Source of the DNA: a virus
Lineage: Duplodnaviria; Caudoviricetes
Length of the DNA: 35,130 bases
Virus record (IMG/VR): IMGVR_UViG_3300012038_000028
Span: 1 to 35,130 of that record
Reading direction: 5' to 3' (one strand)
Shown: one piece after another, positions 1 to 35,130 of the stretch
Layout: each line of letters starts with the position of its first letter
Numbering within the stretch: the first letter of the stretch is position 1
Program-made: the position numbers and the translations under genes
Notes under the pieces: generated by a model
Database searches by the model: none
What the model saw: the letters and a program-made list of their open reading frames with translations, nothing else
What the model was told of the DNA's origin: nothing

Positions 1-919
1 CTCTCTCTGTGAAGGTGACACCCAACTTGGGATCACCGCGATAGTGTGCTTCTATCCAAACGCTACGTGGTGGATTGTGCTTCGTGTAGTGCCTGAAATG
101 TCCCATGACCTTATGATAACGACGATGCTGTACTGATGCATCATCTTCAACGTCACGAAGTGCTGACGTACTGATGCCTCTCTCGATGGCGGGCCGATGC
201 TCGTACCGTCGATGTGGTTTGCAGATGTGAAGTCTAATCTTTCGATACTCAAGCAATGGTGGTTTGTCAGCCTTTGCTCGCTTTGCATTGTGACTGGGCT
301 TCCACTTGACTTGCTCATCGGTGTAGCACCTTGGTTGTGTGACAAGGAAGATGCCGAAGACTATCTCTAGCACAACAGAGCTAAGCTCTACTGCAAGCTT
401 CTTCTGCTTGTACAACGTGCTCTCATTGAACGCATACTCAACAGTGAAGCCTAGCGACTTTTCATCAAGTCTACCGGGCGGCCACTGTGAGAATGTGAGT
501 ACGTGCGTGAGTGTGCACATAAGCCCTTTGCGATCTTTGTCCTTCAAGCCAGTGACGATTGTCATGCGCACACGGTTACTGTCTATACGCTGTATAAGTG
601 CGCCGTAGGCAGCATACTCGATCAACTCGTCGTCAATCACTGAACCTAAGCCTGTGGTGCTGGTGTACTCAAGCCAGAAACAGTCATAGGGCAGACGCGC
701 ACTAGTCAGCACACCAATGAAGGTGAGCTGCTTGTTGTCATGCATATCGTACAGAATGCTGGGCACATCGTCACTAAAGACGATGCGCTCAGCTAGACGG
801 TTGAGTACAGCTACACCGCTATGAGGGTTGAACTTAGTTGGTAGCTCTAACCTACTACGTAGATAGCCGTCATAAGGTGAAGGCACACGGTCGCCATAGA
901 GCCACTGTTGTGCTAGCAC
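1..919 (-). CDS. Hypothetical phage protein, truncated at the left window edge (absent from the ORF track)
   Basis: Manual translation: GTG at 919-917 after AGGAGG, open to position 2 (VLAQQWLYGDRVP...RLPYDCFWLEY...HKVMGHFRHY...WIEAHYRGDPKLGVTFTER). The His/Arg-rich C-terminal motif resembles uncharacterised phage proteins. Confidence 0.8.
   Translation of the reverse strand, partial: MLAQQWLYGDRVPSPYDGYLRSRLELPTKFNPHSGVAVLNRLAERIVFSDDVPSILYDMHDNKQLTFIGVLTSARLPYDCFWLEYTSTTGLGSVIDDELIEYAAYGALIQRIDSNRVRMTIVTGLKDKDRKGLMCTLTHVLTFSQWPPGRLDEKSLGFTVEYAFNESTLYKQKKLAVELSSVVLEIVFGIFLVTQPRCYTDEQVKWKPSHNAKRAKADKPPLLEYRKIRLHICKPHRRYEHRPAIERGISTSALRDVEDDASVQHRRYHKVMGHFRHYTKHNPPRSVWIEAHYRGDPKLGVTFTER
584..596. 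repeat. TATAC-N3-GTATA palindrome (in CDS)
   Basis: TATACGCTGTATA. 582-600 is identical over 19 bp to 1385-1403. Confidence 0.85.
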
Positions 920-928
920 TGATGCCTC

Positions 929-1054
929 CTATGGACAAGCGTTGTAACAATCAATGCCATTGCCACCTATGTACATGACAATGAGCACCAACATCACTCC
1001 GCCTAGCACGTAGCCTAGCAGTGTAAGCACTGCCTCATGTAATGGTACGTGCAT
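929..1054 (-). CDS. Small predicted membrane peptide (41 aa)
   Basis: ATG overlaps the upstream TGA (TGATG coupling). MHVPLHEAVLTLLGYVLGGVMLVLIVMYIGGNGIDCYNACP has one hydrophobic helix. Its TAG overlaps the RBS of the next gene. Confidence 0.65.
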   Translation of the reverse strand: MHVPLHEAVLTLLGYVLGGVMLVLIVMYIGGNGIDCYNACP

Positions 1055-1881
1055 CACGCAGCCCTCCTTGTGATAAGCTCATCAGCCTGTTGCCATAGAG
1101 CTTGGTTGATGTTCACACTACGATCAACATTGCGTATGCTACTCATACGCCTGACTGTGTTGTTGCTCTGATACGTCATACCACCGCGCATGATGTTCTC
1201 TTGTATGACATTCATCACGCAGTAGAGGCTATTATCGTTGTCTGCATTGCGTCTGATCTGCAGCATACGTTGACGCATGTCAGCTACAAAGCTACCACTA
1301 CGATCTTCACCGAAGCGTTGCTTGACAGCTACATCAGCTAACACTAGGCGCTCTGCGAGTGTAGTCTCATGCTGCTTCATGCGATCTATACGCTGTATAA
1401 GTGAACCAATGTGCTCACCCACATCGTCTAGCTCTAGCATCACCTGCTCCATTAGGTCAGGCGCTAGATGCACAAAGCTACGAGCGTACAGCATATCACC
1501 TGCTATACACCCATTCATGCACACAAAGCGAATGAAGCCGAGGAACATCTTCAGCCTACTCGATCCATCATGGCTATCGAGTAGTACTAACTCAGGTGCA
1601 TAGTCTGTGTTAGCGAACGCAGTAGGACGTAGACGTACCATGACCTTTTTGTATAACGACTCACCACCCTGTACACTACTGACCTTGAAGCCACGATTGT
1701 GCATGTGTGTTAGTATGTCGTAGGTGTTAGTGAATGAGTATCTGTCAGTCATCTTAGGGTGTGCTGTAGTAGCAAACAACGCTGGTGCTACTTGACGCAT
1801 ACGCGCTGCATCTGTGAAGCCTGATGCATTCTCAATGTCTACGAGTTCATGCTCAGGTAGTTGTAGCAGTAATTGTGACAT
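1054..1881 (-). CDS. DUF932/DUF945-family protein
   Basis: Motifs APALFA..H...TDRY, PELVLLDSHDGSS and GFIRFVCMNGCI match the family. AGGAG spacing favours ATG 1881 over 1887. Confidence 0.85.
   Translation of the reverse strand: MSQLLLQLPEHELVDIENASGFTDAARMRQVAPALFATTAHPKMTDRYSFTNTYDILTHMHNRGFKVSSVQGGESLYKKVMVRLRPTAFANTDYAPELVLLDSHDGSSRLKMFLGFIRFVCMNGCIAGDMLYARSFVHLAPDLMEQVMLELDDVGEHIGSLIQRIDRMKQHETTLAERLVLADVAVKQRFGEDRSGSFVADMRQRMLQIRRNADNDNSLYCVMNVIQENIMRGGMTYQSNNTVRRMSSIRNVDRSVNINQALWQQADELITRRAA
1387..1399. repeat. TATAC-N3-GTATA palindrome (in the DUF932 CDS)
   Basis: TATACGCTGTATA. Confidence 0.85.
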
Positions 1882-1927
1882 CTTCATCTCCTTGAGTTAT
1901 ACAGTGTATGAAGTGAGGGAGTAACAA

Positions 1928-2185
1928 CTAACCGTTGATCTTGTACCAGTGACCGTCGATGTTCAACTCGTACTCTTGACCACGACCTAGACCAAGGCCA
2001 CGACCATAACGCTTGTGATTAGCAGGCGTCATGATTGCCCAACCACCCGCAGTTGAGCCATCAATGAAGCGTTTGCGTATAGGATAGCCGAAGCTATCTG
2101 TCTTAGGTACTTCACCATACCAACGCTTCGGATTGCTTGACGCTTGTTTGAGCTTCAACACTTCACCAACTGTGAGCTTCATCAT
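1928..2185 (-). CDS. Hypothetical phage protein (85 aa)
   Basis: AGGAG RBS at 2194-2198. First gene after the leftward promoter at 2276-2303. Contains F.DG.T..GWAIM and GRGLGLGRGQEY motifs. Confidence 0.8.
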   Translation of the reverse strand: MMKLTVGEVLKLKQASSNPKRWYGEVPKTDSFGYPIRKRFIDGSTAGGWAIMTPANHKRYGRGLGLGRGQEYELNIDGHWYKING

Positions 2186-2210
2186 GTGGCAGTCTCCTTG
2201 TTTGAGAGTT

Positions 2211-2223
2211 TATACTATGTATA
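2211..2223. repeat. TATAC-N3-GTATA palindrome (PL1 leader, upstream of RBS)
   Basis: TATACTATGTATA. Confidence 0.85.
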
Positions 2224-2275
2224 ACAAGCAAGCTATCTCAACTTCTAGTCACTATCTTCCCTCACTTCTAGCTTT

Positions 2276-2303
2276 ATTATATCACATCTAGGATCACATG
2301 CAA
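2276..2303 (-). promoter_or_regulatory. Leftward sigma70-like promoter PL1
   Basis: Minus strand: TTGCAT-16 nt-TATAAT with extended -10 TGn. Confidence 0.8.
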
Positions 2304-2320
2304 GTCTCAACAGCTTGTGT

Positions 2321-2333
2321 TATACAACGTATA
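2321..2333. repeat. TATAC-N3-GTATA palindrome (upstream of the PL1 -35)
   Basis: TATACAACGTATA. Confidence 0.85.
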
Positions 2334-2571
2334 GCCAACTACACATAGTCTACTATATCACATATACACACACATATAGCCTCAAATGCCTTCGTTGTAC
2401 GCATATACGCACGCAAGGTCAGCACTGTGGTCGGTCACAGTACCAAACTGGGGTCGGCTCCGCCTCCTGGGCGCGTGTGTATGTGTGATGTAGGTGAGCG
2501 GCGTAAGGGTGGCGGACGCACGCCTCTGGCTGCGCTTGTGTTGCCTTCATACTGTGTATGAATGCAGACAC

Positions 2572-2616
2572 AAAAAAACCCGCCGCATGTTGCGAGTGTG
2601 CAACACGCGACGGGTT
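2572..2616 (-). terminator. Rho-independent terminator after the 2635-3495 gene
   Basis: Minus strand: long GC stem (AACCCGTCGCGTGTTGC...GCAACATGCGGCGGG) followed by T7. Confidence 0.85.
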
Positions 2617-2619
2617 AGT

Positions 2620-2632
2620 TATACGTTGTATA
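2620..2632. repeat. TATAC-N3-GTATA palindrome (between stop codon and terminator)
   Basis: TATACGTTGTATA. Confidence 0.85.
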
Positions 2633-2634
2633 AG

Positions 2635-3495
2635 TTACTTGCCAGTTACTGCGGCTTTGATCTTAGTCACAACGTTCGGCACTTTCTTTTCAACGGGTGC
2701 CGCAAGCTTGGCATGCTCATCACGTGCAAGCTGCTTCTCTGCATCCGTTAACGTGTTATCAAGCTGCATCCAGAGTGCACGCAGCTTAGCTTTTGCATCC
2801 GGGCCAACGGCATATGAGCCACCATCGGTGACTAGGCCCGCAAGCGTAGTGTCAAGGTTAGTCACTGCGTCTGCAACCTTGCTAGGTTCAATACGCGTAC
2901 CGTTCGCGCCGCCCTTGTTGACGTTAGGCGTGCCCTGCTTAAGAGACTTCAATTCACCGCGCATATCCAACGCGTTGTCGTGCTTGTCTAGCAGGGCCTT
3001 TGCTTCCTCAATCTTCATAAGCTGCGAAGCATTGAAGAATACGCGGTCCTGCTCATCTTTCGCCTTAACAAAGCAGGACCACGTGCCTTTGCTTTTCTTG
3101 TCCTGTTCATACGTAACAGCGCACCCACGTGATTTGAGATAGGCAACGCCGTTGTATGTCTTTACCGCACGTTCTAGCGCAGTGTTGATTGCGTTAAGCT
3201 GCATTTGCATTGTGCGGAACCGAGTATCTTGCGCGGGTGTGCGCTTCTCAGTCTCTTTGAGTTTGTTGAACTCATCCGCAAACTTCTCACCGTCGGGGCT
3301 ACTCTCTTGCCAATAGTTGACGATGATAGTGCGGGCCTTCTCATCGTCGGCCCGCTTGATCAGACGCAATGACAACGTTGCTAGTTCGTTGTAGTGCGCA
3401 TTGCACAAGTAAATGCCGCCGGTTTCGACCTGTGATTTAGCTTGCGCAATATCAAGCAGATCAGAGACAAGCGAAGTGTGATTAGACTTAGTCAT
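2635..3495 (-). CDS. Hypothetical protein (~286 aa), stand-alone transcription unit
   Basis: Long ORF (track 2635-3531). AGAAGG 9 nt before ATG 3495 favours that start. Has its own promoter and terminator. No family recognised. Confidence 0.75.
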   Translation of the reverse strand: MTKSNHTSLVSDLLDIAQAKSQVETGGIYLCNAHYNELATLSLRLIKRADDEKARTIIVNYWQESSPDGEKFADEFNKLKETEKRTPAQDTRFRTMQMQLNAINTALERAVKTYNGVAYLKSRGCAVTYEQDKKSKGTWSCFVKAKDEQDRVFFNASQLMKIEEAKALLDKHDNALDMRGELKSLKQGTPNVNKGGANGTRIEPSKVADAVTNLDTTLAGLVTDGGSYAVGPDAKAKLRALWMQLDNTLTDAEKQLARDEHAKLAAPVEKKVPNVVTKIKAAVTGK

Positions 3496-3690
3496 GTTGT
3501 GTAGCCTTCTGTTTATGTTGCCGTTGTGCATTATGCCAACGCATAGCCACCGCGTGCATAGCTTCGCACACGGTAGCCAATGCGCCGTCTAGATGTCCTG
3601 CATCGACACATTGTGTCCGCTGTCACCGTCACCGCGTTTACGGCATTGGCTAGGCGTATGCTTGGGCTAGATCAACGTTTCAACATACAC

Positions 3691-3718
3691 ATTGTAACAC
3701 CGTGCAGAACACATGCAA
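3691..3718 (-). promoter_or_regulatory. Leftward sigma70-like promoter PL2
   Basis: Minus strand: TTGCAT-16 nt-TACAAT with TGn extension, same architecture as PL1. Confidence 0.75.
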
Positions 3719-3779
3719 GCTTTTCATCGTGTCAATTAGTAGTACTAAATCACGCAATGTGTGCACTATATCTAGCGTT

Positions 3780-3792
3780 TATACAGTGTATA
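3780..3792. repeat. TATAC-N3-GTATA palindrome (upstream of PL2)
   Basis: TATACAGTGTATA, flanked by TT and AA. Confidence 0.85.
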
Positions 3793-4248
3793 AAGCACAC
3801 AATCACACATAGCTAGAACACCATCGCGCATGAATACGTCATATATAACAGGCACTTAGCACTATAGCATGCCACACATAGCGCACATATAAGCGACAAA
3901 GCGCAACTACACATCGCGACACATAGCACGCACGCACACGTATAGCGCAGGGGTAGAGTCAGCCGCGCCGCTCACCGTGTCGAGTGTGCCCAAGTGTATA
4001 TGTGCCGCATAGTTGCGTGTATGTGTGCGTGCATGTGTTGATGTGTGCGCGTGTTGATGTAGTGTTGCAGATGTGTCCGCCACTGTGACTGCGTTGCTAC
4101 ACTTGTCCCCGCCAATTCCCAAAGGCGCACATTGACATGGACACGTGGCGAGTGGGATGAGCGTCAACACAAGCCCCGCAACTGCGTGAATTGCTTGCCG
4201 CTGTGTGTGCTATTGGTGCCTATGTGGCTATATGTGGCTATGTGTAGT

Positions 4249-4261
4249 TATACAGTGTATA
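4249..4261. repeat. TATAC-N3-GTATA palindrome (non-coding region)
   Basis: TATACAGTGTATA. Confidence 0.85.
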
Positions 4262-4327
4262 GGGGTGAGTACTTGTGTGTATAGATGTGTAGTACTCTAG
4301 ACTATACCAGTAACTCGATGAAGTCAT

Positions 4328-4379
4328 AAAAAGAGGCGCACGTAGTATGTCCTCTGTGTGAGAACTACTACGTGCACCT
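4328..4379 (-). terminator. Rho-independent terminator
   Basis: Minus strand: AGGTGCACGTAGTA...TACTACGTGCGCCT stem followed by CTTTTT. Confidence 0.75.
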
Positions 4380-4399
4380 AAGTTAGACTACCACAACAT
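4328..4399 (-). ncRNA. Putative small RNA (~70 nt)
   Basis: Lies between promoter PL3 and an intrinsic terminator, with no room for a substantial ORF. Confidence 0.55.
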
Positions 4400-4403
4400 A
4401 TAT

Positions 4404-4431
4404 AGTATAGCACATGTGTAATCACATGCAA
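4404..4431 (-). promoter_or_regulatory. Leftward sigma70-like promoter PL3
   Basis: Minus strand: TTGCAT-16 nt-TATACT with TGn extension. Shares CTTGCATGTGAT and ATGTG with PL1. Confidence 0.75.
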
Positions 4432-4572
4432 GCTTACACGCACGTGTGTAGTAGTGCATATGTCGCGGTGATAGAACCAAGCAAGACCAGCCGACCGGGC
4501 CTATCGGCCCGGACATAGTGTTGCTGCAGAGTGTGTCAGTGTTGCTGACGGTTGATGATGGCTATTAACTTG

Positions 4573-4601
4573 TTGACATGACAGTTCCAATGTGCTATGG
4601 C
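4573..4601 (+). promoter_or_regulatory. Rightward promoter of the structural operon (PR1)
   Basis: TTGACA-17 nt-TATGGC preceded by TGC, about 40 nt before the first + strand gene. Confidence 0.6.
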
Positions 4602-4643
4602 GAACATAGACTTACTCTATCTCACATGCAAGGAGAGACAGTC

Positions 4644-5030
4644 ATGCCGTCATGGGCTGGTGGTTGGGACAATCAGTTCGGTGAGCCGCACTCACTCATG
4701 CATCAGTTCACACCAACGATGCGACACATGGCAATCCTCGCTGCATCTGCTGGTGGTCAGCACTTTGCAGAGATCGCACGTGCGCTTGCGAACGGTGTTG
4801 GTGCTAACACTGAGTTCACCATCGCACAGGTGTCAGCACGACAAGCAGACGGCATGAACCAAGGTGGTAAGGTTGCCATCGTGCCGTATGCTGTCGTACC
4901 GATGCGTCCTACTACCAACGTAGACAAGGAAATCTTCCAAGCACAGATGACACCACGCTTTGCACCTGTCATCTACCCTGTTGACAAGTCTGGCAACGGT
5001 GGCGGTGGCAAAGCAGGGACAATCAACTGA
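4644..5030 (+). CDS. Hypothetical protein (128 aa), first gene of the late operon
   Basis: AGGAG RBS precedes ATG 4644. Stop overlaps the next start. Confidence 0.75.
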   Translation: MPSWAGGWDNQFGEPHSLMHQFTPTMRHMAILAASAGGQHFAEIARALANGVGANTEFTIAQVSARQADGMNQGGKVAIVPYAVVPMRPTTNVDKEIFQAQMTPRFAPVIYPVDKSGNGGGGKAGTIN

Positions 5031-5590: not shown

Positions 5591-6246
5591 TGGCAGAACT
5601 ACCGCTCGCTAATGGGCTTGTCATTGATACCACAACGGGTCAGGCGATGCTTCCTAGCACCGCACCTGATGCGGTCATCAAGCAGCAGACAGCGCGTACG
5701 CAGCAGACTACGCAAGCAGCTATTACAAGAGGTCGTGATCGCAACAATCGTGTTGTGCGCCGTGGTCTTATTGATCTGCCTGCTGACAGCAAAGCAGTGA
5801 CTACAGCAGGTGTTGTGTGGTTGTACTTTATACTTGGTATAAATGACGCAGAGATTGCTGAAGCTACTGGATTGAAGATCAGTCAAGTAGACATGATCAA
5901 GGGTCTGCAGCTATTCACACAGTTAGACACGCTCATCAAAGACAACATCACTGCACTCCAACACCACGATGTGCAGAAGCGCATTGACAGTCTGTCAAGT
6001 GACGCACTCACAAAGCTCGAAGAACTTGTTGAGGATGAAGACACGAAGCCTGCTACTAAGGCACGTGTGCTGATGAACATGCTCGACCGCGGCGGCTTTA
6101 GTCCGAAGCAGGTGCTCGAACACAGACACTCGTTAGAAGGTGGCCTGACTATCCGTCACATACGTGAGATCGCGCAGCCCAAGCACATGCCGAGTATTGA
6201 TGTAGACGCGCGTGATATAACTAATCAAGTTGTGAAGGAGAAGTAG
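5590..6246 (+). CDS. Probable terminase small subunit (HTH-containing)
   Basis: HTH-like GINDAEIAEATGLKISQVDMIK, helical core ending MLDRGGF, and position upstream of the large terminase. Confidence 0.6.
   Translation: MAELPLANGLVIDTTTGQAMLPSTAPDAVIKQQTARTQQTTQAAITRGRDRNNRVVRRGLIDLPADSKAVTTAGVVWLYFILGINDAEIAEATGLKISQVDMIKGLQLFTQLDTLIKDNITALQHHDVQKRIDSLSSDALTKLEELVEDEDTKPATKARVLMNMLDRGGFSPKQVLEHRHSLEGGLTIRHIREIAQPKHMPSIDVDARDITNQVVKEK
5829..5841. repeat. TATAC-N3-GTATA palindrome (in the probable terS CDS)
   Basis: TATACTTGGTATA, flanked by TT and AA. Confidence 0.8.
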
Positions 6247-6248
6247 TC

Positions 6249-6452: not shown

Positions 6453-6454
6453 CG

Positions 6455-8053
6455 ATGGCCCGACCACGTACTACTCATGTTGCTGAGCGTCCTGAGCTAC
6501 TGCTACTAGAGGGCAGTCTGCAGGATCGCTTCTTGCGTAGTAAGGCAAAGCTACAAGTCTACGGCGGTGGCTTCGGCAATGGTAAGACTACTGCTGCTGT
6601 CATCAAGGCAATACAACTCGCTGATCAATACCCAGGTAGCACTGGTCTTATATCACGTAGCACGTATCCGAAGCTGAATGACACTATACGTAAGGAGTTC
6701 CTGAAATGGTGTCCGCCTACGTGGATTACGTCTTTCAGCACTGGTCAAAACGGCGACAACATATGTCACCTAAAGAACGGCACGACTATCTATTTCAGAT
6801 ATATAGCACAACAAGGGACGAAGACAGAGAGCAGTTCTTCCAATCTATTGAGCGCAACATTCGACTGGGTGATAGTGGATCAAGTGGAAGACCCGGAGAT
6901 AACGCACAAGGACTTTCTGGACTTGTTCGGCAGGCTTCGTGGCCGCGCACGCTACATAGGTGAAGATGCGTCTATGCCTGTGACTGGGCCTAGATGGATG
7001 ATGCTGACGTGCAATCCTACTGGCAACTGGGTGTACACGAAGTTGGTACGTCCGTTGATGCAGTATGAACAGAGCGGCATTATCAGCGAAGACTTAGTAT
7101 GTGTACGTGACGTAGACCGTAAACCAGTGCTAGGTGCAGATGGACGACCTCAGTTGCTCATCGAAGTTATTGAAGGTAGCACCTATGAACTACGCCATGT
7201 TCATGAAGCTGAGGGTGGAGACTTTATTGCAACGCTTGAAACCATGTATAGTGGACAACAGAGAGATCGCTTTCTGCTTGGCAAATGGGTGGCCTACGAA
7301 GGATTGGTGTATCCGCAGTACGACAACGCATTGCACCTACTACACGAAGGCGACATCCACGCGCTACTCGACGCTCTCATTGAAACACGCTACCAACCTA
7401 ATTGGATTGAAGGCTACGATTGGGGGCTAGCACAACCTAGTTGCTACATGCTTGCGTTCGTCACTCCTGAGAAGCACGTCATCATCGTTGACGGCTTCTA
7501 CAAGAAGGAGATGTCGTTAGACGAACAGGTTGCAGCTATACGACGTATAAGAGCAGAGTGGAATGCTGAGCTAGATGACATGAGCAAGGTGCTAGCTGAT
7601 CCTAACATCTTCGGTCGTAAGACTGTACACAAGCGCACAGTCGGCAAGACGATTGCTGAGATGTTCAAGGATGAAGGCATCTACATGCGTCGTGGTAACA
7701 ATGACATCAACAACGGTGTTATCAAAGTCGGCGGTTATCTGAACGTAGACTTCAAACTGCTACACCCGATCAAGCGTGCAGCACCCTCTCCACGTTTGTT
7801 CGTCAACGCCAAGCTCGACTGGTGGAGTGATGAGTGCAGCGGCTACTACTGGCAGCAGTCTACTAGCGGCGAGCGCATAGACAAGCCAATCGACCGCAAC
7901 GATCACGCGATGGATACCACGCGCTACATACTGAGCGACATGCCTGTGATTGGCAAGTACTCAATCCCTGCATCAGAGCGTGTGCCGAGTTGGATGATGT
8001 GGCACGAGCGCGAACGTGATAGCGAGCATTCAAGGAAGCACCGCTATGGCTGA
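6455..8053 (+). CDS. terL: Terminase large subunit
   Basis: Walker A GGFGNGKT, Walker B-like WVIVDQVE, coupling motif LTCNP, nuclease motifs GYDWG and NDHAMDTTRY. Confidence 0.95.
   Translation: MARPRTTHVAERPELLLLEGSLQDRFLRSKAKLQVYGGGFGNGKTTAAVIKAIQLADQYPGSTGLISRSTYPKLNDTIRKEFLKWCPPTWITSFSTGQNGDNICHLKNGTTIYFRYIAQQGTKTESSSSNLLSATFDWVIVDQVEDPEITHKDFLDLFGRLRGRARYIGEDASMPVTGPRWMMLTCNPTGNWVYTKLVRPLMQYEQSGIISEDLVCVRDVDRKPVLGADGRPQLLIEVIEGSTYELRHVHEAEGGDFIATLETMYSGQQRDRFLLGKWVAYEGLVYPQYDNALHLLHEGDIHALLDALIETRYQPNWIEGYDWGLAQPSCYMLAFVTPEKHVIIVDGFYKKEMSLDEQVAAIRRIRAEWNAELDDMSKVLADPNIFGRKTVHKRTVGKTIAEMFKDEGIYMRRGNNDINNGVIKVGGYLNVDFKLLHPIKRAAPSPRLFVNAKLDWWSDECSGYYWQQSTSGERIDKPIDRNDHAMDTTRYILSDMPVIGKYSIPASERVPSWMMWHERERDSEHSRKHRYG
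7537..7549. repeat. TATAC-N3-GTATA palindrome (in terL)
   Basis: TATACGACGTATA. Confidence 0.8.
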
Positions 8054-10355: not shown

Positions 10356-10367
10356 TAGGAGGCTCCA

Positions 10368-11438: not shown

Positions 11439-11450
11439 GACACATCAACA

Positions 11451-12411: not shown

Positions 12412-12424
12412 TATACGCTGTATA
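12412..12424. repeat. TATAC-N3-GTATA palindrome (after capsid stop, before next RBS)
   Basis: TATACGCTGTATA. Confidence 0.85.
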
Positions 12425-14294: not shown

Positions 14295-16772
14295 ATGGTA
14301 CAAATGTTGACACGTTCGTTGAAGCCACTCGGCAGGCCGAAGCAGGCACGACCAACCGCCAAGCTGCACAACACAACGATTAGAGACTTCGGCGGCGGTT
14401 TGAACGTTGTTGACAGCGAACAGAATTTGACGAGTAAGTTCTCTCCTATCTTCGATAACATGGTCACTTACACAGATAGGCGAGCAGGGCCACGTTACGG
14501 CTACGAGATGTGGCTCAAGTTGAAGACTGGTGAAGTGAGCAGTGGTAGTGTGACTATTACAGTCGCCACCACAGTCCAATCACGCATCGTTGCAATCAAC
14601 TGGGTAGCACACCCGTTCACAGGCAGTGGCTTCGAGCACATCACTATCAGTGGTTGGGATACTACGTTCCAAGACATTGTGCCAGAGATGATGAACCGCA
14701 CGCACGGTATTAGGCGTGTGATTGATGTCAACACATTTGAGATTGTGCTTACCAACTCCGCAACTGGCACAGGCACTAGTCCATCAGACACGATCAACTG
14801 GACACGTGACACACATATGCTAGGCGGTGAGCCTATCGAAGCGAAGTACTTTGCTAACTACGTGGTGCTGTGGTCTAGTGTCGGTGAGATACTAATCATC
14901 GACAGGTTCAAAGGTATACAGCGTATATGGTCACAAGCTGTTGCATTCTCACTCGCAGCCAACCCGATTGGATGGACACACACTGAGTTGATCGCTAGTG
15001 ACATCTTCGGCAAGGAGTTGATCTGCAGCAATGGTAGAGACAAGCCACTCGCACTAGACTTCACACGTGATGTGGGTCAGTGGGTGTTGTATCTAGTAGA
15101 CCCTGGCAACGTCAGTAGCAACGACAAGGTGCCAGCCTTCGACGCATGTAAGTCGGCATTCAGGTTCTTCACTATACACGATACAGAGCCTGCAACACTG
15201 CCAGAGCACGCAACAGAAATACGCATCGCTGCTAAGGACACCGCTATGGTGTTCAGCGATGCACCTGATCCTGCTGACGCTGTTGACATCAACATGAGTA
15301 AGATCACTGCTAGCCCTGAGCAGACAGTGAGAGCGTTCGCAGTCATCAAGGATGCACTACTAGTCATCACGCCGACTGCAACGACGATGATGAAGTACAA
15401 CATCTACACCACTGATGGTCAACACGATCCACAGCCAGTCGATACACTCAATGGCTTCGGTACGAGTGCACCGCGTACAGTCGTTGAGATTGGTAGTGAC
15501 GTGTTCATGGTTGACTACAACGGTGTTCCGTCTGCCAAGCTGTCATCAGTTAGCAATGCCATCGTACCTGAGCGCGTGAGCAACTACGTCGAGACGATGT
15601 TCAGCAAGCACATCGGTCACATGCGTAAGGAGACAATGAGGCTGAAGGCGTTCGGCTTCTATGACAGCAAGAACAAGAGTGTACATTTCTACCTGCCGAA
15701 GTTCGATACACAGGATACACACATACTAGTCAACGATCCATTCTTCTTCGACAGAGACATGATGACAAATGAGTACACCAAGCGTGCGCTCATTATGCGT
15801 GCTGATGATCATCAACTAGAACAAGGCGACATCATCAACGTCACAGGAGCGATAGGCTTTGGTACTCTCAACGCTGCAGACATCAACGGCGAACGTACTA
15901 TCTTAGGTGTGCTGAATGAGAACTACTTACTCATATCTATTGGAGCAGACTTGCCCGCATCATTGCCAGAGACAAGCATCAGTGGTGGTGGCAACAACGT
16001 CATCTTCCAACCAATCATCGACGGCACCATTGGCTACATCTATCACTACGTGCCACAGTTGAAACTGTTCGCATGGTCACGGTTCAAGACTAAAGAACAT
16101 CTCAAGTTCAACTGTGGGTGTGGCACACTAGAAGGCCGCGCGTTCCTCTTTACACCTGACGGCTACATGATGCGCTATGGCTCACCTGATCACCAAGTGC
16201 ATGCTGACTGGTACGGCATGTATGATCACGCAGCGTGGGTTAGTGGGCAAGCGTACACAGTGGGTGAACGTGTATACGACGCGACTGATGGGCTTGTATA
16301 TAAGTGCTTGGTAGATGTCACAACGACTGCGGCTGACTTCAAGACTGCACGTGCGCAAGAGCCTGATAGTTGGGAGGAATACAAAGGCGAGCCGATTGAC
16401 TTTGCGTGGGAGTTGCCTTGGTCTGACTTCGGTGCTCGACAGTCTGTTAAAGGTCTACGCTTCGCACACATAGACGCGAACGGTGATGCACAGTTCACAC
16501 TCAGTCTGTTCGCTGACAACATCTACCGAGATGCGGCAACGGGACAACTGACACCAGCTAGACAACTTACCTTTGTGCCTAATGAGGCTGCTGCTTACGG
16601 CACTGGCATACAAGTGTACGGTGCTGGTAGACGTACACGCGAGCAGAAACTGTGGCAGATGCCTATGCACCTGAAGCTACTCAAGCCACGCATCAGTGGT
16701 AGTAGCACTGGCCCATTGAGCATCAACGCAATGAGTTTCATGTATCATCGAGGCAGTATGGTGCGAGGATGA
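14295..16772 (+). CDS. Tail nozzle / tail tubular protein B-like, with inserted domains
   Basis: 825 aa, N-terminal DFGGGLN motif, beta-rich, AWSRF near the C-terminus, and gene order. Confidence 0.75.
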   Translation: MVQMLTRSLKPLGRPKQARPTAKLHNTTIRDFGGGLNVVDSEQNLTSKFSPIFDNMVTYTDRRAGPRYGYEMWLKLKTGEVSSGSVTITVATTVQSRIVAINWVAHPFTGSGFEHITISGWDTTFQDIVPEMMNRTHGIRRVIDVNTFEIVLTNSATGTGTSPSDTINWTRDTHMLGGEPIEAKYFANYVVLWSSVGEILIIDRFKGIQRIWSQAVAFSLAANPIGWTHTELIASDIFGKELICSNGRDKPLALDFTRDVGQWVLYLVDPGNVSSNDKVPAFDACKSAFRFFTIHDTEPATLPEHATEIRIAAKDTAMVFSDAPDPADAVDINMSKITASPEQTVRAFAVIKDALLVITPTATTMMKYNIYTTDGQHDPQPVDTLNGFGTSAPRTVVEIGSDVFMVDYNGVPSAKLSSVSNAIVPERVSNYVETMFSKHIGHMRKETMRLKAFGFYDSKNKSVHFYLPKFDTQDTHILVNDPFFFDRDMMTNEYTKRALIMRADDHQLEQGDIINVTGAIGFGTLNAADINGERTILGVLNENYLLISIGADLPASLPETSISGGGNNVIFQPIIDGTIGYIYHYVPQLKLFAWSRFKTKEHLKFNCGCGTLEGRAFLFTPDGYMMRYGSPDHQVHADWYGMYDHAAWVSGQAYTVGERVYDATDGLVYKCLVDVTTTAADFKTARAQEPDSWEEYKGEPIDFAWELPWSDFGARQSVKGLRFAHIDANGDAQFTLSLFADNIYRDAATGQLTPARQLTFVPNEAAAYGTGIQVYGAGRRTREQKLWQMPMHLKLLKPRISGSSTGPLSINAMSFMYHRGSMVRG
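14915..14927. repeat. TATAC-N3-GTATA palindrome (in the nozzle CDS)
   Basis: TATACAGCGTATA. Confidence 0.8.
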
Positions 16773-16774: not shown

Positions 16775-16787
16775 TATACACCGTATA
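16775..16787. repeat. TATAC-N3-GTATA palindrome (5 bp upstream of the PR2 -35)
   Basis: TATACACCGTATA. Confidence 0.85.
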
Positions 16788-21733: not shown

Positions 21734-21736
21734 CAG

Positions 21737-22291: not shown

Positions 22292-23348
22292 AGAAGGTGT
22301 GGCTGCGGTTGTTGCCACTCCTATTCACAGTGTGCAGAAGCCTAAGAAGAAGCGCGTTGAGAACGAACGTGTGCTAGAGACAAAGGGTGGAGGTGGTTAC
22401 GTTCCACCGCCGCAACCTAGTCCGCGTGAGCTAGCTGAAGCACGCGATTGGGAAGCACGGCAAGAGTACGAACGTGAACAGCGTAGAGCTGATGCACTCA
22501 AAGAACAACAGCGCATTGAGAAAGAAGCCAGCGATGCTGCATGGAACTCTAGCAAGGGTGCAGCATACACAGGCGCACTGACAGGCGGTACGAGCAGACT
22601 GAAGTCGCTGGGCATTGAAGCTGGTGATCCATACGGTGTATATGCAGACTTCACCAATCGCCTCAACACAGCCAATGCAAGCCTGCAACCCGGTGCGGAC
22701 TACAGCAGCGCATTCGCACCTACTATCCTTGATGAGATACTAGGTGGCGCACGCAGTGGTCAGCGTAACAAGTACAAGACTGCGTTTGAGGGTCAGATTG
22801 ATCCTTACTACGCAGAGGACAGGTTCGGTAGTACTGCAGATGATGCGATCTTGAATGCAATTCTAGAAGACCAATACGGCACGGCTGCTGCTGATCTAGC
22901 TGCTGCGCGTGATCGTGGTCAGGCTAGCAACATCGTCTACGACAGGGCGTTGAAAGACCTCAGTACTGCGCGTGCAACAGCCAACACCGACTTGCAGAAC
23001 ATCGGCGGTGGTGTGCTATCTGACATCGTTGGTGACATCGGTAGCCGTAGACAGAGTGCACTCGACAGTGCTGCTGCATGGGACTTCGGTTCTACCTACG
23101 ATCCTAGCAGAGAAGCAGATCGCATTCGTAGCTACGCAGACGAACGTGGTGCAGGGCTTGAAGGTGCTATCCGTGGTGCAGTCGGTGGTCGTGAGTTCTT
23201 TGATGTCAACTCACTACTCGGCAAAGCTTCGGCACGTGCTGGCAACCAGACTACGCCAACCACTACAGGCAGTGCTCTGTTCGACACGTTCAAGAATGAA
23301 GCCACTAAGACTAGCGACAACGTGAAGACTACCGAAGGCATCTTCTAG
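22242..23348 (+). CDS. Internal virion / ejection protein
   Basis: GAGGA RBS. KGGGG..PPPQP motif followed by an Ala/Gly-rich helical body. Confidence 0.65.
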   Translation: MIAPHIAAWALSKRNSKEGVAAVVATPIHSVQKPKKKRVENERVLETKGGGGYVPPPQPSPRELAEARDWEARQEYEREQRRADALKEQQRIEKEASDAAWNSSKGAAYTGALTGGTSRLKSLGIEAGDPYGVYADFTNRLNTANASLQPGADYSSAFAPTILDEILGGARSGQRNKYKTAFEGQIDPYYAEDRFGSTADDAILNAILEDQYGTAAADLAAARDRGQASNIVYDRALKDLSTARATANTDLQNIGGGVLSDIVGDIGSRRQSALDSAAAWDFGSTYDPSREADRIRSYADERGAGLEGAIRGAVGGREFFDVNSLLGKASARAGNQTTPTTTGSALFDTFKNEATKTSDNVKTTEGIF

Positions 23349-23379
23349 CACACGTGTAGTAGTCTAGAGGAATAGACCA

Positions 23380-24432: not shown

Positions 24433-24439
24433 GTGAACA

Positions 24440-27553: not shown

Positions 27554-27554
27554 T

Positions 27555-30500
27555 ATGTCAGACGGTTATACAGCGTATAGCAAAGACGAGTTCATCAGCA
27601 AGTTCGGCTACGATCCCGATGCTGTTGGTGAGCCTGTTGCTGCTGGTGGCGGTTCACCTATCGCCAATCATTTGAAAGCTGCAGCAGTCGGTGCGATGAC
27701 GATACCGACTGATTTCCTCAACTTCGGTCCTACTGTTGTCAAAGGTGGCTTGGCGCTCTACGATGCATATGCCAACGATACTAAGTTCGTTGATGAGTTC
27801 CAGAAGCGCATCCAAGTTGAAGGTGCTAAGGACAACGTACAGAAGCATCTGCAAGACGTGGTGACATCATGGAAGCAACGTGATCCTAGTCTGACGCCTG
27901 AACAACTTGAAGCTGGTATCACTGAGTACCAGAAGTCGAAGCAGTTTGAAGACTTCACCACTGAGCAACTGAGCGGTCCTGCGTATGCAGCAGCCAAGTG
28001 GCGTGACACGAGTAGACGCCTACTAGGTGATGAGCGCACAGAGGATCAACGCAGTTGGACTGAGGGTGCTGCAGAGGTACTAGGTGGTGCATTGATAGGT
28101 GCGCGTGCTGGACCTGTTGTAGCAGGTGCGCAGGCTATCTCACGCCTCGGCCCTGCTGCTGCTAGAGTTGTAGCCAATCCTGTAGTACGCGGTGCTGTGC
28201 GTGTAGGTGAAGCTGTCACACCACTCACCATACCCTACACAGGTACGAACGTTGCAATCAACGCTGCTGCTGGCATCGGTATAGATCAGGCGGTGCGCTA
28301 TGCGCAGGGTAAGCCTACTGCATTCACACCTACTGATGAAGACAGCGCAGGTATTGCGTCACTAGCAGGCACTAGTGCTGTTGTTGCAGGCGCTGCAGCG
28401 TTCGTAGCTGCTGTACGTGGTAGAACTAGACAAGCACTACAACAAAGTCAGACTGAGGTAGCACTACAAGCCAATCCACAGTTGAACTACAGAGTTGAGC
28501 TTGATCCACAGACAGGCCAATCGTTTATACGTGGTGGTGCACCACAGCAGCTAGGCCCATCGTCCGAGCTAGAGGAGACATCGAATAGAAGCCTGTTCGG
28601 TCGCGTGCAAGGTTGGCGTCGTAGTGCACGTGACAGGTTGATTGATCAATCCGCACACCCCAATGCGATGATCAGGGATATACACGGTGGTGAGGTAGCG
28701 AGAGAAGCTGAGAACTTGTACACTCGTAACACCGGCGCAGTGTTAACTGATCGCATTGCATCTGACACTATTACCATCGACGGTCCAGTGCGTGATGCAT
28801 GGACAGCTATGACGCCTGAGAAGCAACGTGCTGTTGCCAATGCACACTGGATGACATCATACGGGTCAGACATCTTGACGACGATGGATGACCTACGTAC
28901 TAGGATCAACGATCTACAGACACAGATCACCAATCCACGCACGCAGCAGTCATCTATCAACACACTACAAAACCAAGTTGCAGAGTTGCAGACTAGTCTG
29001 CGCAGGCTGACGAACGATGATCCAGATGCACGTATGCGTGTGCCTGCTATCAGCCAGAACACCGTGTTCTCAACACGCAATGCATTCCTAGCTGACACTG
29101 ATCCACAGGTGACTGCATACAAGAACGCAGTTAGAAATCGCAATCGCATACTGCTCGACATGCAAGTGGCTAGCGGCAGGCTGTCACGTGCGACTGCGGA
29201 TGAGTGGCACCGACGCAATCCCTACTACGTGCAGGCAGTCAACGATCCACACAACAACTTGACAGGTTGGGCACGTACGCTGGCTAAGTGGCGTGGCTCT
29301 GTACGTGCTGCACAGACTAGAGCTAGTGAAGGCTCTGCAGCAGGTACACTGCGTGAAGGGCCACTGCGTAGTCTAGACAAGAACCCTGCAGCAGTACAGG
29401 GCATAGGTGCACCTGAGACACGCATCACGCATCCAATGGAGCCGATGAGTGCATCGCAAGAGTACACCATACGCACACTGCGAGAGGTCGCACACACACT
29501 GCCACGCAATGAGTACATCAGGCTGTTGACACAAGACCCTGCAGGCAATCCGTCTGCGCTTGTGGTTGATGGCCGTATACGCGGTGTGCAGAGTGGACCG
29601 GGTAGGTACTGGTTTACGTCTTCACAGTTGAACTCACCGCAGTTCAGACACCTGAAGGATAGAACAGATGTAGCGATAGAGTGGCAGAACGGTCAAGCAC
29701 GTGTGTGGGAGTTTGGTGATCCTGAAGTGACACGTGCACTGCGCATGGAGCCTGTGCAGTTGTCAGGCTTGATGAAGACTGCGACTGCAATCACTAACTG
29801 GTTCAAGTTCTTCACCACCGGCAAAGGCAACGCAGCGTTCGCACCTGTCAACGGTTACTACAACACAGCGATTGCGATGCTCACGCATAGAGCAGACAGA
29901 GCATTCGGGCCTCTATCGTATGCAGCGCACCGCGTGTTGCCAGAGCGTGCAGCTAGAGTGCTAGGTGTAGTACCTGATGTCACGTCGATTGCAGCGATGC
30001 CTTACTACGCAGTCAAGAACTTGATCCAACTGCAGACACACTTCTTGACAAGGCCACTAGCACGGCAGTTGGCACAGAACGTTGTACCGTTTCAGGCGTT
30101 GCAGTCTGTAGTCGGTCAGCGCATGTTCAACAGCATGGTCAATGTGGCTAGCCGTGTTGCACTGTGGGCTGATCAATCACCGGCTGTGGTACTACGCCGC
30201 GGTGGTGCTGGTCACGGTGTGCAGTCGATTGACAACATACCACGCATACGTGACAGCTTCACTTCGATCAAAGAGAACGTGCCCGCGCCGTTGCGCTACG
30301 CGTGGCAGTTCTACACCGATGTGCTCGACAGCTTCCATCTCTCTGACAAGGCACAGTACTTCACACAGAACCACGCACTCATGGCAAGGAGACATGGTGG
30401 CAACATACCACAGCGCGATCTAGAACGCCTGATTGACGAGACACGCAACATCGCCGGCGATATGTCACTCGTACCAGCTAGCAAGCTGATGCAAGACATT

Positions 30501-31862: not shown

Positions 31863-31863
31863 T

Positions 31864-31876
31864 TATACATTGTATA
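31864..31876. repeat. TATAC-N3-GTATA palindrome (fills the convergent gene junction)
   Basis: TATACATTGTATA occupies 13 of the 14 bp between the two stop codons. Confidence 0.85.
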
Positions 31877-34405
31877 TCACATAATATCCTGCCGCTTGAT
31901 CTTCTTGATCGTACTCCATCTGTGTACTCCACCTTCATCAGCAACGCTAATACCACACTCTGCGGGTATGATCAACTGCTTACCACCTATCAGCAGTGGC
32001 GCTTCTGCGTGTTTGACTAGCAGACGTAGTGCATGTTTAGCTACATCAAAGCGCGCCAAGCCGATTAACCCATCATGCGTGTTGAGTGCGATGCGAGCTA
32101 ACCCCTTGGGCCATTGAGGATCGTCGTGTGCTTTGTATATTACCCGACATATGTGGTCGCCTACTGTGGACTGTGGATAGAAGGCAACGATTGCTTCGGT
32201 ACTTTCTTCTGTCACTGGTATCAGTTGAACGTATCGCCTACCATAAGCGTTATAGATCGCCCTCTCTGTCCGCACACGGTTCAAGTCTGCTTGCCATCCT
32301 ACCTTTAATTCAGGTGTGAGCTTGTGGTACTTGACAAATGCTTCACTTGCTATAGACAGAGACAAGCCTGTAGTCAGTGCCAAGCGGTCAGGCATCATGC
32401 GGTAGTTAAGACCATGACGACATCTCTTAGCAATGTAACGGATGGTGGGCTTGCCAGCAAGCTCGCTGCTGTAATCAATGCCATCACGTCGAGCGGCAGC
32501 TTCGTCCAAGGGGTAACGGTCGAACGTGGGCACGTCTGCGTACGGTACATCGAACATGTCTGCGGCGAGAGCGCGGTGGCAGTCGTAGGAGCCGTCGAGC
32601 CGCGCTCTCTCAAACTGTTCTATCCACGTCGTAATGTTGTAACGCCAACCAACAACCCGCGCTTCAGCTTGCGACCCGTCGATGTATATAAAGCACATGC
32701 CAGGGTCCGCGATGAACATGCTCTTGGCACGGTCGGGAATGTTCTGCAGATTAGCTCCCGATCCCCAAAGCGTCTGCGCACTAGACAGACGACCGGGCGC
32801 ACTACGCACCCCAGTCTGACGGTAGTCACATCGCATACGTGAGTCCTCATCAGGCTTTGCAGATGCATAGACTGAGTAGAACTTATCGTCCTCGATGTAA
32901 GCATCCACCGCAGTCAACACAGCGCGTGCTGCTGGCGATGTGCGTGGGTGCTTGCGCATCAACTCGCGATTGGTTGCGTCTGTACTTGTTCCTCTGCCTA
33001 CGAGTTTGAGCTTTGAGAAGTACAACTCCGCCATCTGCTTCGGTGAGTTTGGGTTCGGTGTGTAGTGTGGATCGTCGCATGCAATACGCACTGCTTCATA
33101 GAACTCGTTCAGCTTCCGTTGCAAGTCTGCATACAGGTTGCCGGGTGTATTTTGATCTAGCATTTGCTCACGCAGTTGCATATCGTTCAGCACGCCTCCG
33201 ACAGTCATCAACACAAGATGCGATTGAAGACGCATGACGTGCTCGAAGTAGAACTTGTCTAGCTTCTGATCGCGTAGCTCAGCTACGATTGCAGCATTCG
33301 ACGCAAGCGTAAGTGCACAGTCCTTACAGTTGTATATCCAGAAATTGTCAATACCGCCAGTATGTCGCCATTCGTCCTTCTCATTCTTATAGAACGGATG
33401 CATTGTGTACTGTTTGACAATGAAGCCAAGGTCATGCGGCATCGTTGGGTATAGCACATGATGACCAAGCATCGTGTCGCTGTATGCTGGCTTGCAACGT
33501 ATGTGATCCTTAAACCAGAGCCACGCCATGTCAAAGCCTCCATTCTGCCAGACCACGCGGCTAGTAGGCGATTGGTATAGGCGTTGTAGATGACGGCGTA
33601 TCTCTGCTTCCTCTTGTACACTGTATAAGTGTTCTTGCTCACTGCGGAACGCGATACACATGGCGTCATGCGACGAGTGAGCAAGCCCGACACAAGCTGT
33701 CTCATTGCTAACGACTTCAATATCGCTTGCGATTGGATCACGTGAGGCTTCACACATACGAATGTAGTCAAGTGCTTGTACGTGGGTGGGATTGATGTGA
33801 GTGACAACTTCATGTGGCTTGTATCGACCTTCGACTACTTCATTCAACTTGTCAGCGATGTCCATGTCAAAGATGATCTGTGCCATAGGATCACGTGCAC
33901 AGAAGGCGGGGTTGTAGGTGCACACAGCTACGACAGACTTGTTGCCGATCGTACATTCGAGCACGCTACCGCGCCAGTTGGTGATACCCTTCTTACCGAG
34001 TAAAGCTTCGACCGCGTAGTTGCCAAGCAGCAGGACGTACTTCAAGTTGGGGAGCATCGACAACTCCCACATCAACAACTCCTGCCACGACGTTAGTTCA
34101 TGCTTGCCCACTGGTACGCGCTTAGCATCATCAGCGAACGCGACTTGACGCTTGACTACATTGGTAATGTAGCACTCGTGACGCTTGATGCTGGGGCAGT
34201 AAGTACGCAACGCTTTCCACAGTATGTTGCCAGCACCACCGACAAGAGGGATACCTTGTGCTACCTCATTGCGACCGGGTGCTTCTGCGATGATAGCCAG
34301 TGTAGCATGTGTAGTACCACCCATCGCACACTCGACAGACATGCCTGCCGTCTGTGCTTGCAGCGTGAACCTATCACGCATGTCTGCAGTCGTCATCACA
34401 TTCAT
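31877..34405 (-). CDS. polA: Family A DNA polymerase with N-terminal UDG-like domain and 3'-5' exonuclease
   Basis: UDG-like AEAPGRNE..G.PLVG.AG...YITNVVK; exonuclease DIE, QNGGFD, YNCKD; polymerase GRLSS, NLQNIP, DGSQAEAR, R..AKRCRHGLNY, THDG. Confidence 0.93.
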   Translation of the reverse strand: MNVMTTADMRDRFTLQAQTAGMSVECAMGGTTHATLAIIAEAPGRNEVAQGIPLVGGAGNILWKALRTYCPSIKRHECYITNVVKRQVAFADDAKRVPVGKHELTSWQELLMWELSMLPNLKYVLLLGNYAVEALLGKKGITNWRGSVLECTIGNKSVVAVCTYNPAFCARDPMAQIIFDMDIADKLNEVVEGRYKPHEVVTHINPTHVQALDYIRMCEASRDPIASDIEVVSNETACVGLAHSSHDAMCIAFRSEQEHLYSVQEEAEIRRHLQRLYQSPTSRVVWQNGGFDMAWLWFKDHIRCKPAYSDTMLGHHVLYPTMPHDLGFIVKQYTMHPFYKNEKDEWRHTGGIDNFWIYNCKDCALTLASNAAIVAELRDQKLDKFYFEHVMRLQSHLVLMTVGGVLNDMQLREQMLDQNTPGNLYADLQRKLNEFYEAVRIACDDPHYTPNPNSPKQMAELYFSKLKLVGRGTSTDATNRELMRKHPRTSPAARAVLTAVDAYIEDDKFYSVYASAKPDEDSRMRCDYRQTGVRSAPGRLSSAQTLWGSGANLQNIPDRAKSMFIADPGMCFIYIDGSQAEARVVGWRYNITTWIEQFERARLDGSYDCHRALAADMFDVPYADVPTFDRYPLDEAAARRDGIDYSSELAGKPTIRYIAKRCRHGLNYRMMPDRLALTTGLSLSIASEAFVKYHKLTPELKVGWQADLNRVRTERAIYNAYGRRYVQLIPVTEESTEAIVAFYPQSTVGDHICRVIYKAHDDPQWPKGLARIALNTHDGLIGLARFDVAKHALRLLVKHAEAPLLIGGKQLIIPAECGISVADEGGVHRWSTIKKIKRQDIM

Positions 34406-35130
34406 GACTTAGGCTTCCTTTTCCAACCCATAGACTTGAGCGATACAGCCAAGCTGCGTTGATCACAGATGATCGAAGCGTGTTTCTTTGCGCGTGTTAC
34501 TCCTGTGTAGAAGTTGGGTCGAGAGAGATTGAAGAACGCACACGACGCCATGATGTAGGTGATATTGTCATACTGCGAGCCTTGGCACTTGTGAGTAGTG
34601 AGTGCGTAGGCCAACTCGATCACCTTACGTGGATCGTATGTGAAGTGGTAGCGTTTGCGTGGGTTGTACTCACTCACACGTGGCGGCAGTTCAACAACGC
34701 GATCACCGAAGTCAATCTCTAGTACACCGTACTCGTCGATTGCTACGACTATACCGACTTCACCATTGAGCATCTGCTTAGTCTCAGGACACTCAATGAA
34801 CGTGCCCATCAAGCCAACGCCGTTGAGATCGAACTCTGTGAAGCGTTCGTTGTAGTCACGTAGATCGTAACTGTTTGTATTACACACCACCTTGTCACCG
34901 ATGCTGACGTAGACTTTGTTCTTGACCTCCCACTTGTTGCGTGGTAGCTCGATCTTGTTAGGTGTAGTGGGATTGAAGCGCATCTGCAGGATGCTGTTGA
35001 GACGCATCGTACCGATGTCAGACTTACGCGCTGGTGAGATGATCTGATTGTCCAACTGTCGCCAGTCGATGTACTCTTTCTCCAACCGGCTATACAGTGT
35101 ATGAAGCACTGCGTCACCGAGATGCACACC
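34402..35130 (-). CDS. RecD-like SF1B helicase, C-terminal part (continues beyond the window)
   Basis: GDKVV...N, MLNGEVG, LAYALTTHKCQGSQY and FYTGVTRAK motifs. Confidence 0.9.
   Translation of the reverse strand, partial: GVHLGDAVLHTLYSRLEKEYIDWRQLDNQIISPARKSDIGTMRLNSILQMRFNPTTPNKIELPRNKWEVKNKVYVSIGDKVVCNTNSYDLRDYNERFTEFDLNGVGLMGTFIECPETKQMLNGEVGIVVAIDEYGVLEIDFGDRVVELPPRVSEYNPRKRYHFTYDPRKVIELAYALTTHKCQGSQYDNITYIMASCAFFNLSRPNFYTGVTRAKKHASIICDQRSLAVSLKSMGWKRKPKS

Follow-up and report, generated by a model that had tools for sequence, protein, structure and literature searches.

A dispersed, lineage-specific palindrome in uncultured podovirus-like phages and a candidate dimeric binding protein

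The 13-bp palindrome TATAC-N3-GTATA recurs along the 35,130-nt DNA of the Caudoviricetes record IMGVR_UViG_3300012038_000028 (hereafter the window), which is the whole contig of a podovirus-like phage, and along the genomes of its relatives. The site array is real, selected and rapidly diversifying, and each lineage carries its own version of the palindrome. The reading developed here, which is held tentatively and at slightly less than even probability, is that the lineage-specific site is bound by a homodimeric phage protein, for which the first early gene (positions 2635–3531, minus strand) is the most likely source, and that this protein silences the genome that encodes it as well as any incoming genome whose sites are of the same type.

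The palindromic array and its lineage versions

An earlier note on this DNA had listed 14 perfect copies of the palindrome, four copies with one mismatch (at 1898, 22630, 33615 and 35091) and a copy with two mismatches at 2548 (CATAC-TGT-GTATG), all of which were recovered. Against the 14 perfect copies, 100 dinucleotide shuffles yielded 0.01 on average and never more than one, and the 18 sites with up to one mismatch compare with 0.79 expected. Among spaced 5-bp palindromes in the window, TATAC-N3-GTATA ranks first (14 copies versus 0.07 expected), and the TATAC and GTATA arms pair 14 times at a 3-nt spacing and never at any other spacing from 0 to 11 nt. Six perfect copies within coding sequences contrast with 0.046 in 500 synonymous-codon shuffles (maximum 1), and 72 perfect coding sites in 16 genomes contrast with 2.8 in synonymous shuffles. 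Together, the dinucleotide and synonymous shuffles rule out chance, composition or a codon artefact as the source of the sites. The R-N-Y spacer to which the note had drawn attention was found in 12 of the 14 copies, the exceptions being TAT at 2211 and TTG at 5829, but is not a family-wide property as relatives possess TCA, TGA or GGA centers. The note's broader proposal of a symmetric, selected, genome-wide site that suits a dimeric protein was upheld by comparison with relatives.

The window represents most of the genome of an uncultured podovirus of ~44 kb, which is the size of the complete genomes of relatives. It encodes a terminase, a P22-like portal, a capsid, an SU10-type adaptor, tail fibers, a family A polymerase with a uracil-DNA-glycosylase (UDG) domain and a RecD-like helicase, and cultured phages provide only 23–29% matches to its proteins. 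Relatives were collected by capsid: 80 of 107 loci were kept, all except one of which show 93–98% capsid identity, and one relative (L157) provides early region that is missing from the window. Perfect copies of the palindrome are present in 23 of 26 and in 5 of 5 records (28 of the 31 relatives). Five complete or near-complete genomes have 20–27 sites with at most one mismatch, compared with 18 in the window. Two genomes without a perfect copy bear altered versions, namely TATAA-TGA-GTATA in G008 and, in G007, arms resembling TGYAC-N3-GTRCA with 14 matches to TRYAC-N3-GTRYA. No such palindrome was detected in the distant fragment G018, in L302 and L303, two distant phages that share the polymerase type, or in the 17 of 44.5 kb of L301 that were read. 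At a further distant locus (L297:67–3403), four TRTAC-N4-GTACA copies were noted in 9 kb, with similar arms and a 4-nt spacer.

Individual genomes favor particular central triplets: AAT in G003 (12 of 20 sites), AAC in G005 (10 of 27), ACT in G013 (18 of 30) and TCA in G011 (6 of 9), and L215 combines an AGC center with TG..CA flanks. The arms also vary across lineages, reading TACAC (in G002, G010 and G014), TGTAC or TATAA, and at least seven versions exist among phages whose capsids are 93–98% identical.

Orthologous sites are gained or lost as units and are re-lettered by lineage, even at a codon and amino acid cost. At one position in the polymerase gene, serine is encoded by AGT in AGT-type genomes and by TCA in two TCA-type genomes, and asparagine (AAT) is found in two AAT-type genomes. 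Similarly, a Y-T-L-Y stretch in a Sak4-like gene is written with TAC ACA in TACAC genomes and with TAT ACT in two TCA genomes, and IRRI in the terminase has become IIAI in G008, thereby spelling the TATAA arm of that genome. There are exceptions: one of the three sites is missing from each of G012, G013 and G015, and in the terminase gene an off-version spacer is mostly retained. When loci were merged at 99.5% identity, 101 genotype groups were obtained, 50 of which have at least four sites. The site that follows the capsid stop codon behaves as an insert that 33 of 53 groups possess, mostly in the version of its own genome, and in groups without the insert the ribosome binding site (RBS) usually comes directly after the stop codon. 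In comparison with L157, 8 of 11 window sites are retained, one is altered, and two are located in an unalignable region in which L157 has two sites of its own. Arm conservation over all 11 sites (97/110) does not surpass the background of 86.6%, but is 88/90 for the nine alignable sites.

The placement of sites was assessed in 15 genomes (G007 and G018 excluded) for intergenic and early density, and in 16 genomes for orientation, wobble and flanks. Intergenic regions account for 6.6% of the DNA but for 121 of the 259 sites, and site density is approximately four-fold higher in the early than in the late region (151 early sites relative to 147.5 kb of early coding DNA, and 108 late sites relative to 406 kb of late coding DNA). 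Sites between co-directional genes have no orientation bias (34:23, p = 0.18), and the 55:11 bias of coding sites is most simply a reading-frame effect. No conserved flank accompanies the sites (flank information ≤0.39 bits), and the gaps between them look random, with coefficients of variation of 1.0–1.2, and include stretches of 6.5–12 kb. A site for an activator that acts at a fixed distance was ruled out by scattered offsets to −35 elements. As the intergenic sites are unoriented and fold weakly, they point to a double-stranded DNA site: the palindrome is in keeping with a dimer bound to such DNA, but not with a signal read from one strand or with an activator at a set position.

The earlier note also had raised a triloop hairpin in single-stranded DNA or RNA. 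Such a 5-bp stem and 3-nt loop would act as an N4-type promoter or as a priming or translation signal. The stem-loop geometry is possible, many intergenic copies are positioned 12–19 nt before a start codon, and intragenic mismatches lean to template-strand wobble (28 versus 11). However, the calculated hairpins have little stability (DNA, −0.4 to −2.1 kcal/mol; RNA, −0.8 to −3.6 kcal/mol), intergenic variants exhibit no wobble preference (8 sense, 5 template and 10 non-pairing), orientation bias or conserved flank, the TATAA-TGA-GTATA version disrupts the closing pair, and no RNA polymerase gene was recognized in Pfam and PHROG scans. A hairpin role is highly improbable. The suggestion in the same note of a packaging or ejection signal, for which terminase or an ejected virion protein would be the reader, was weakened and is very unlikely. 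A 1435-aa putative internal protein does track the motif (partial correlation 0.55), but sites that are four-fold denser in the early region and separated elsewhere by gaps of 6.5–12 kb are a poor match for packaging signals. Moreover, two relatives whose putative small terminases are 94% identical have motifs at a distance of 2.3, which exceeds the sampling noise of 1.14–1.27, and the helix-turn-helix (HTH) of the terminase is nearly invariant. The small terminase HTH was rejected as the binder on these grounds, and several other late genes also drop out because near-identical proteins accompany different motifs.

Candidate binding proteins

It is probable that a phage protein binds the palindrome and, if so, the chances are about even that this protein is the product of gene 2635–3531. 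The assignment is a lead and not a result. The earlier note, which named no cognate protein and overlooked the lineage versions, had the gene within its window. The candidate is predicted to form a dimer with a score of 0.77, compared with 0.00 for the best of three controls; among solved proteins, 20 of 30 homodimers but just 1 of 23 monomers attained this mark. Contacts in the dimer models agree by at least 78% across runs with a predicted local distance difference test (pLDDT) value of at least 81. A site follows the stop codon of the candidate gene in 20 of 21 groups, the next highest frequency being that of the HNH gene (20 of 25), and one to four sites are present within 1.2 kb upstream in 29 of 29 cases. 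The candidate has 53 matches among representatives at 50% identity. Protein distance was compared with motif distance across genotype groups with at least six sites, and rho for the candidate is 0.46 (Mantel p = 0.001, with no correction for kinship). In shared genomes, the candidate surpasses 31 of the 32 other families in tracking motif distance, including the polymerase (0.60 for the candidate versus 0.28).

A number of observations weigh against this protein as the binder and against the silencing that is ascribed to it. A 150-aa early protein (L157:12797–13249) outperforms the candidate head to head (0.51 versus 0.45). In partial correlations over all available pairs, the polymerase and the 1435-aa virion protein (0.55 each) exceed the candidate (0.45), and the best 40-residue windows are those of the polymerase (0.71, in its UDG-like domain) and of a 128-aa early protein (L157:13254–13640; 0.63) compared with 0.46 for the candidate. 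Tree parsimony places the candidate level with the DUF932 and HNH genes, and no single residue cleanly predicts the site version. The genome pairs share ancestry and are not independent, and the range of the candidate is inflated by its variability, which few other genes equal; an early gene that is first and hypervariable could just as well specify an anti-defense protein. Neither Pfam, PHROG nor fold searches matched the candidate to a known family, and it lacks a recognizable DNA-binding domain or HTH profile match. Promoter distance is not fixed, with offsets to −35 elements scattering from approximately −105 to +300. Finally, neither an integrase nor a partition (parABS) gene was recognized by Pfam or PHROG in the window and relatives, in which several core early genes are unannotated, and no prophage of the family was located in two scans of 185,579 genomes. 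Thus, the silent state in which immunity would matter is a proposal only. An integrase or parABS also was not recognized among rare open reading frames (ORFs) of ≥150 aa in five genomes, and the genome scans yielded one distant 44.5-kb contig with 53% capsid identity.

Fold comparisons of the candidate revealed no clear relative, with a best E value of 1.7e-3 (TM 0.17) in a viral library, no E value <0.001 in the PDB, and a best Z score of 6.2, to helical bundles, in VIA. The C-terminal part, which was barely tested, scored 0.77 in an Atlas search, and cultured phages provided no match to the protein. One lead, the repressor c family of phiC31 (PF25746), emerged as a weak ESM Atlas neighbor (0.80, below the 0.9 bar) but was discarded when hhalign returned probabilities of 0.1–0.2% against 36 repressor c sequences; hhalign values for a repressor c homolog among 14 other families were <5%. 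An optional HTH gene (L127:16592–16879) was dismissed as the family-wide binder as it occurs in only seven groups and not in L157.

The binder may instead be another phage protein, whether the HNH-HTH protein, the polymerase or a further early protein, and the sites may mark positions for nicking, for recombination-dependent replication, or for the organization or protection of the DNA. The HNH gene (L157:12115–12816) is of the His-Me type with an HTH-like tail and a Pfam HNH_3 match; its fixed, syntenic position marks it as part of the family core and not as a homing endonuclease of sporadic occurrence. It is present in every complete genome examined, frequently has a site after its stop codon as noted above, and its tree requires no excess version changes. 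The polymerase windows rank highest in motif tracking, and both the random-looking gaps and the intragenic position of half of the sites favor a role outside transcription. Nevertheless, the HNH β-strand region is letter-identical across AAT, TCA and AGC lineages, the protein wins just 11 of 31 head-to-head comparisons, the polymerase falls behind the candidate in shared genomes, and the insertion of sites between stop codons and RBSs together with clustering at early promoters is a better fit to transcription than to landmarks. This alternative is unlikely, albeit the weightiest of those considered.

The sequence GANTC is avoided in the window (4 observed versus 87 expected) and, to an extent that differs by lineage, in the relatives (0.00–0.34 of expected). 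GANTC avoidance is associated with alphaproteobacterial hosts through CcrM, although a GANTC restriction system would produce the same avoidance. The pattern suggests that the host of the window phage is alphaproteobacterial. CCWGG, GTCGAC, CAGCTG, ATCGAT, GAAGAG and AGCGCT also are depleted in the window. A host transcription factor also was considered as the binder, the versions then mirroring the hosts. The lineage variation in GANTC depletion, a rough host proxy, is in keeping with this explanation, as is the finding that none of the phage proteins with a recognizable DNA-binding fold occurs throughout the family. The motif of a host factor usually is conserved among orthologs, and the occurrence of at least seven versions among phages with near-identical capsids speaks against a factor of this type. 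CtrA is reported to act as such a host factor in some alphaproteobacterial phages (PMC9437464), but half of the sites here are intragenic, unlike promoter-focused CtrA sites. A host factor also is less likely because tail-fiber similarity fails to track motif distance (rho 0.04, p = 0.67), and overall the explanation is improbable.

Sites and neighboring genes along the window

The contexts reported previously for the copies, beside promoters, RBSs and stop codons, hold, as at 2321, 16775 and 31864. The same is true of the coding reads IQRI (584, 1387 and 14915) and IRRI (7537), to which ILGI (5829) and YTAY (27567) can be added. At the left end, sites are situated in early gene 2–919 (584–596, spacer GCT) and in the DUF932 gene (1387–1399), and a near-site with a GTATG arm (1898–1910) directly precedes the RBS of the latter. 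These three sites are retained in L157, as is that at 2211–2223, which is before the RBS of gene 1928–2185 and downstream of a predicted early sigma-70 promoter (TTGCAT-17-TATAAT, 2275–2303, minus strand) that is a pattern match to the consensus only. Another site (2321–2333), which is altered in L157, lies upstream of the same promoter, 18 bp from the −35 element at 2303, and the L157 copy of the two-mismatch site at 2548–2560 is one step closer to the consensus. The most conserved position in the family is that at 2620–2632, between the stop codon of the candidate gene and its predicted intrinsic terminator (2577–2616, minus strand), which has a 17-pair stem and a U-tract. Upstream of the candidate gene, a second predicted early promoter (TTGCAT-17-TACAAT, 3690–3718, minus strand) is preceded at ~60 bp by the site at 3780–3792. 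The site at 4249–4261 is in the early/late divergent region, downstream of a third predicted early promoter, also a pattern match (TTGCAT-17-TATACT, 4403–4431, minus strand).

Further rightward, sites are found in the putative small terminase gene, the identity of which is from position (5829–5841), in the large terminase gene, where 12 of 15 genomes have a site at the same codon (7537–7549), as the insert between the capsid stop codon and the next RBS (12412–12424), and in a gene for an 825-aa tail protein (14915–14927). The site at 16775–16787 follows a stop codon and ends 5 bp before a predicted tail-fiber-gene promoter (TTGACA-17-TATAAA). A near-site in a structural-region gene (22630–22642) was not seen in relatives and may be due to chance. 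The site at 27567–27579 is at codon 5 of the gene for the 1435-aa putative internal virion protein, and that at 31864–31876 fills the 14-bp gap between the convergent stop codons of the late and early units. A function as terminator substitute at this junction was rejected, because a site that is located entirely beyond the polymerase stop codon is present in just 3 of 23 groups. The remaining near-sites are in the family A DNA polymerase gene (33615–33627), where orthologous sites match the version of each genome, and in the RecD-like helicase gene (35091–35103). The polymerase gene extends from 31877 to 34405 and the UDG-like domain is N-terminal.

Long CA/TG-rich runs are found in the segment at 3540–4640 in the divergent region, together with two of the three leftward promoters of the TTGCATGTG type. 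It aligns poorly even to L157 and may harbor an origin or a genome end. Gene 2–919 corresponds to L157:7414–8349 and specifies a conserved early protein without an assigned function that ends in an H-x-V-x-G-H-x-R motif. A second such protein (L157:9911–11197; phrog_8203) has GHKL-ATPase-like motifs. Signal-peptide-like proteins of 246–270 aa are encoded by early-region inserts in G001 and G003 (L117:9873–10685 and L125:1957–2697). Neither a primase, an endolysin nor an RNA polymerase was recognized among the scanned proteins of the window and the complete relatives G001–G005. In the distant fragment G018, which is without the palindrome, lysozyme-like and holin-like ORFs were discerned by eye, as was an 86-aa ORF of ribbon-helix-helix appearance (L155:1873–2133) that precedes the helicase gene and has no PHROG hit.

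Proposed function and comparison with known systems

If the product of gene 2635–3531 is the silencing homodimer, it would be produced first, from three strong predicted leftward promoters, and would bind sites around the early promoters and after its own stop codon. The bound protein would repress the early promoters and serve as a transcription roadblock at many other points, with the result that the resident genome, and any that enters with sites of its type, would be silenced. As in immunity groups, the versions would have diverged because phages that escape cross-repression are favored. Kin recognition is preferred over plain timing control because ~20 sites, several of which are in essential genes, have been rewritten repeatedly and at a cost among phages with near-identical capsids. 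A more ambitious proposal, which is possible but rather doubtful, is that these integrase-free, replication-proficient podoviruses possess a kin-recognition code, comprising a homodimeric repressor of new fold and ~20 dyads, that keeps the genome and superinfecting phages of the same version silent, selection for escape having divided a large family into many immunity types without integrative lysogeny. If correct, the family would provide a new DNA-binding fold, immunity-like divergence in lytic-looking phages, and a natural set of near-orthogonal operator-repressor pairs. The family offers dozens of natural site versions, recombinant genomes and a small candidate protein. With the versions and the candidate available, binding, specificity and silencing are testable in a laboratory strain without phage culture.

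A text search with six spellings of the motif retrieved only unrelated eukaryote papers, and nothing was found on this phage family or on binding to the phiC31 repeats, with most subscription papers and supplements outside the scope of the search. The palindrome resembles the inverted repeats of phiC31, the repeats of Cluster O mycobacteriophages and the stoperators of Cluster A mycobacteriophages, but is a member of none of these classes. The matS sites of enterobacteria, which are bound by dimeric MatP, likewise are dispersed 13-bp dyads with an AC-RNY-GT core. However, matS is chromosomal and the RNY spacer is not family-wide here, and no MatP-family Pfam hit was obtained among the scanned phage proteins, nor did fold searches of the candidate give a clear match. 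N4-type hairpin promoters have a stable hairpin and conserved one-sided flanking sequence, unlike the weakly folding, flank-free sites in this family. The genome of phiC31 has conserved inverted repeats that are bound by repressor c, and 15 copies of a perfect dispersed palindrome were counted here in its 41 kb. In contrast, phiC31 is temperate with an integrase, and profile comparison of the candidate to repressor c was negligible as described above. CtrA sites also are present in many copies per phage genome and the host class is likely the same, but they are bound by a host protein, are concentrated at promoters and are common to unrelated phages (PMC9437464), whereas the sites here are dispersed and lineage-specific.

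The likeness to stoperators that was drawn in the earlier note extends to dispersal, early-region density and divergence between relatives, but not to asymmetry or orientation, nor was an integrase recognized. Cluster A genomes are reported to have 20–30 sites of ~13 bp genome-wide, most of them away from promoters, with motifs that differ between related phages, and the sites are asymmetric, oriented with transcription and bound by the monomeric HTH repressor of temperate phages (PMC6550527; PMC9283540). The sites described here are unoriented dyads, the candidate is a predicted dimer with no recognized HTH, and no integrase or parABS was recognized. A precedent for joint divergence of motif and repressor also comes from Cluster A, in which a weak correlation links immunity to the distances between repressors and between motifs (PMC6550527).

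The puzzle of dyad repeats that are dispersed in phages without an integrase dates from the report on Cluster O, which named neither a binder nor a function (PMC4351075). The 17-bp Cluster O repeat, TGTTCGG-N3-CCGAACA, is present in >30 copies with one consensus for five close genomes (PMC4351075). It shares with the present palindrome inverted arms, a biased 3-nt spacer, unoriented dispersal that is part intergenic and part coding, the absence of an integrase, and greater density in one leftward-transcribed region (PMC4351075). The array described here differs in its 5-bp arms and sequence, in its 20–27 copies, in its diversification into at least seven lineage versions, and in having a named candidate binder.

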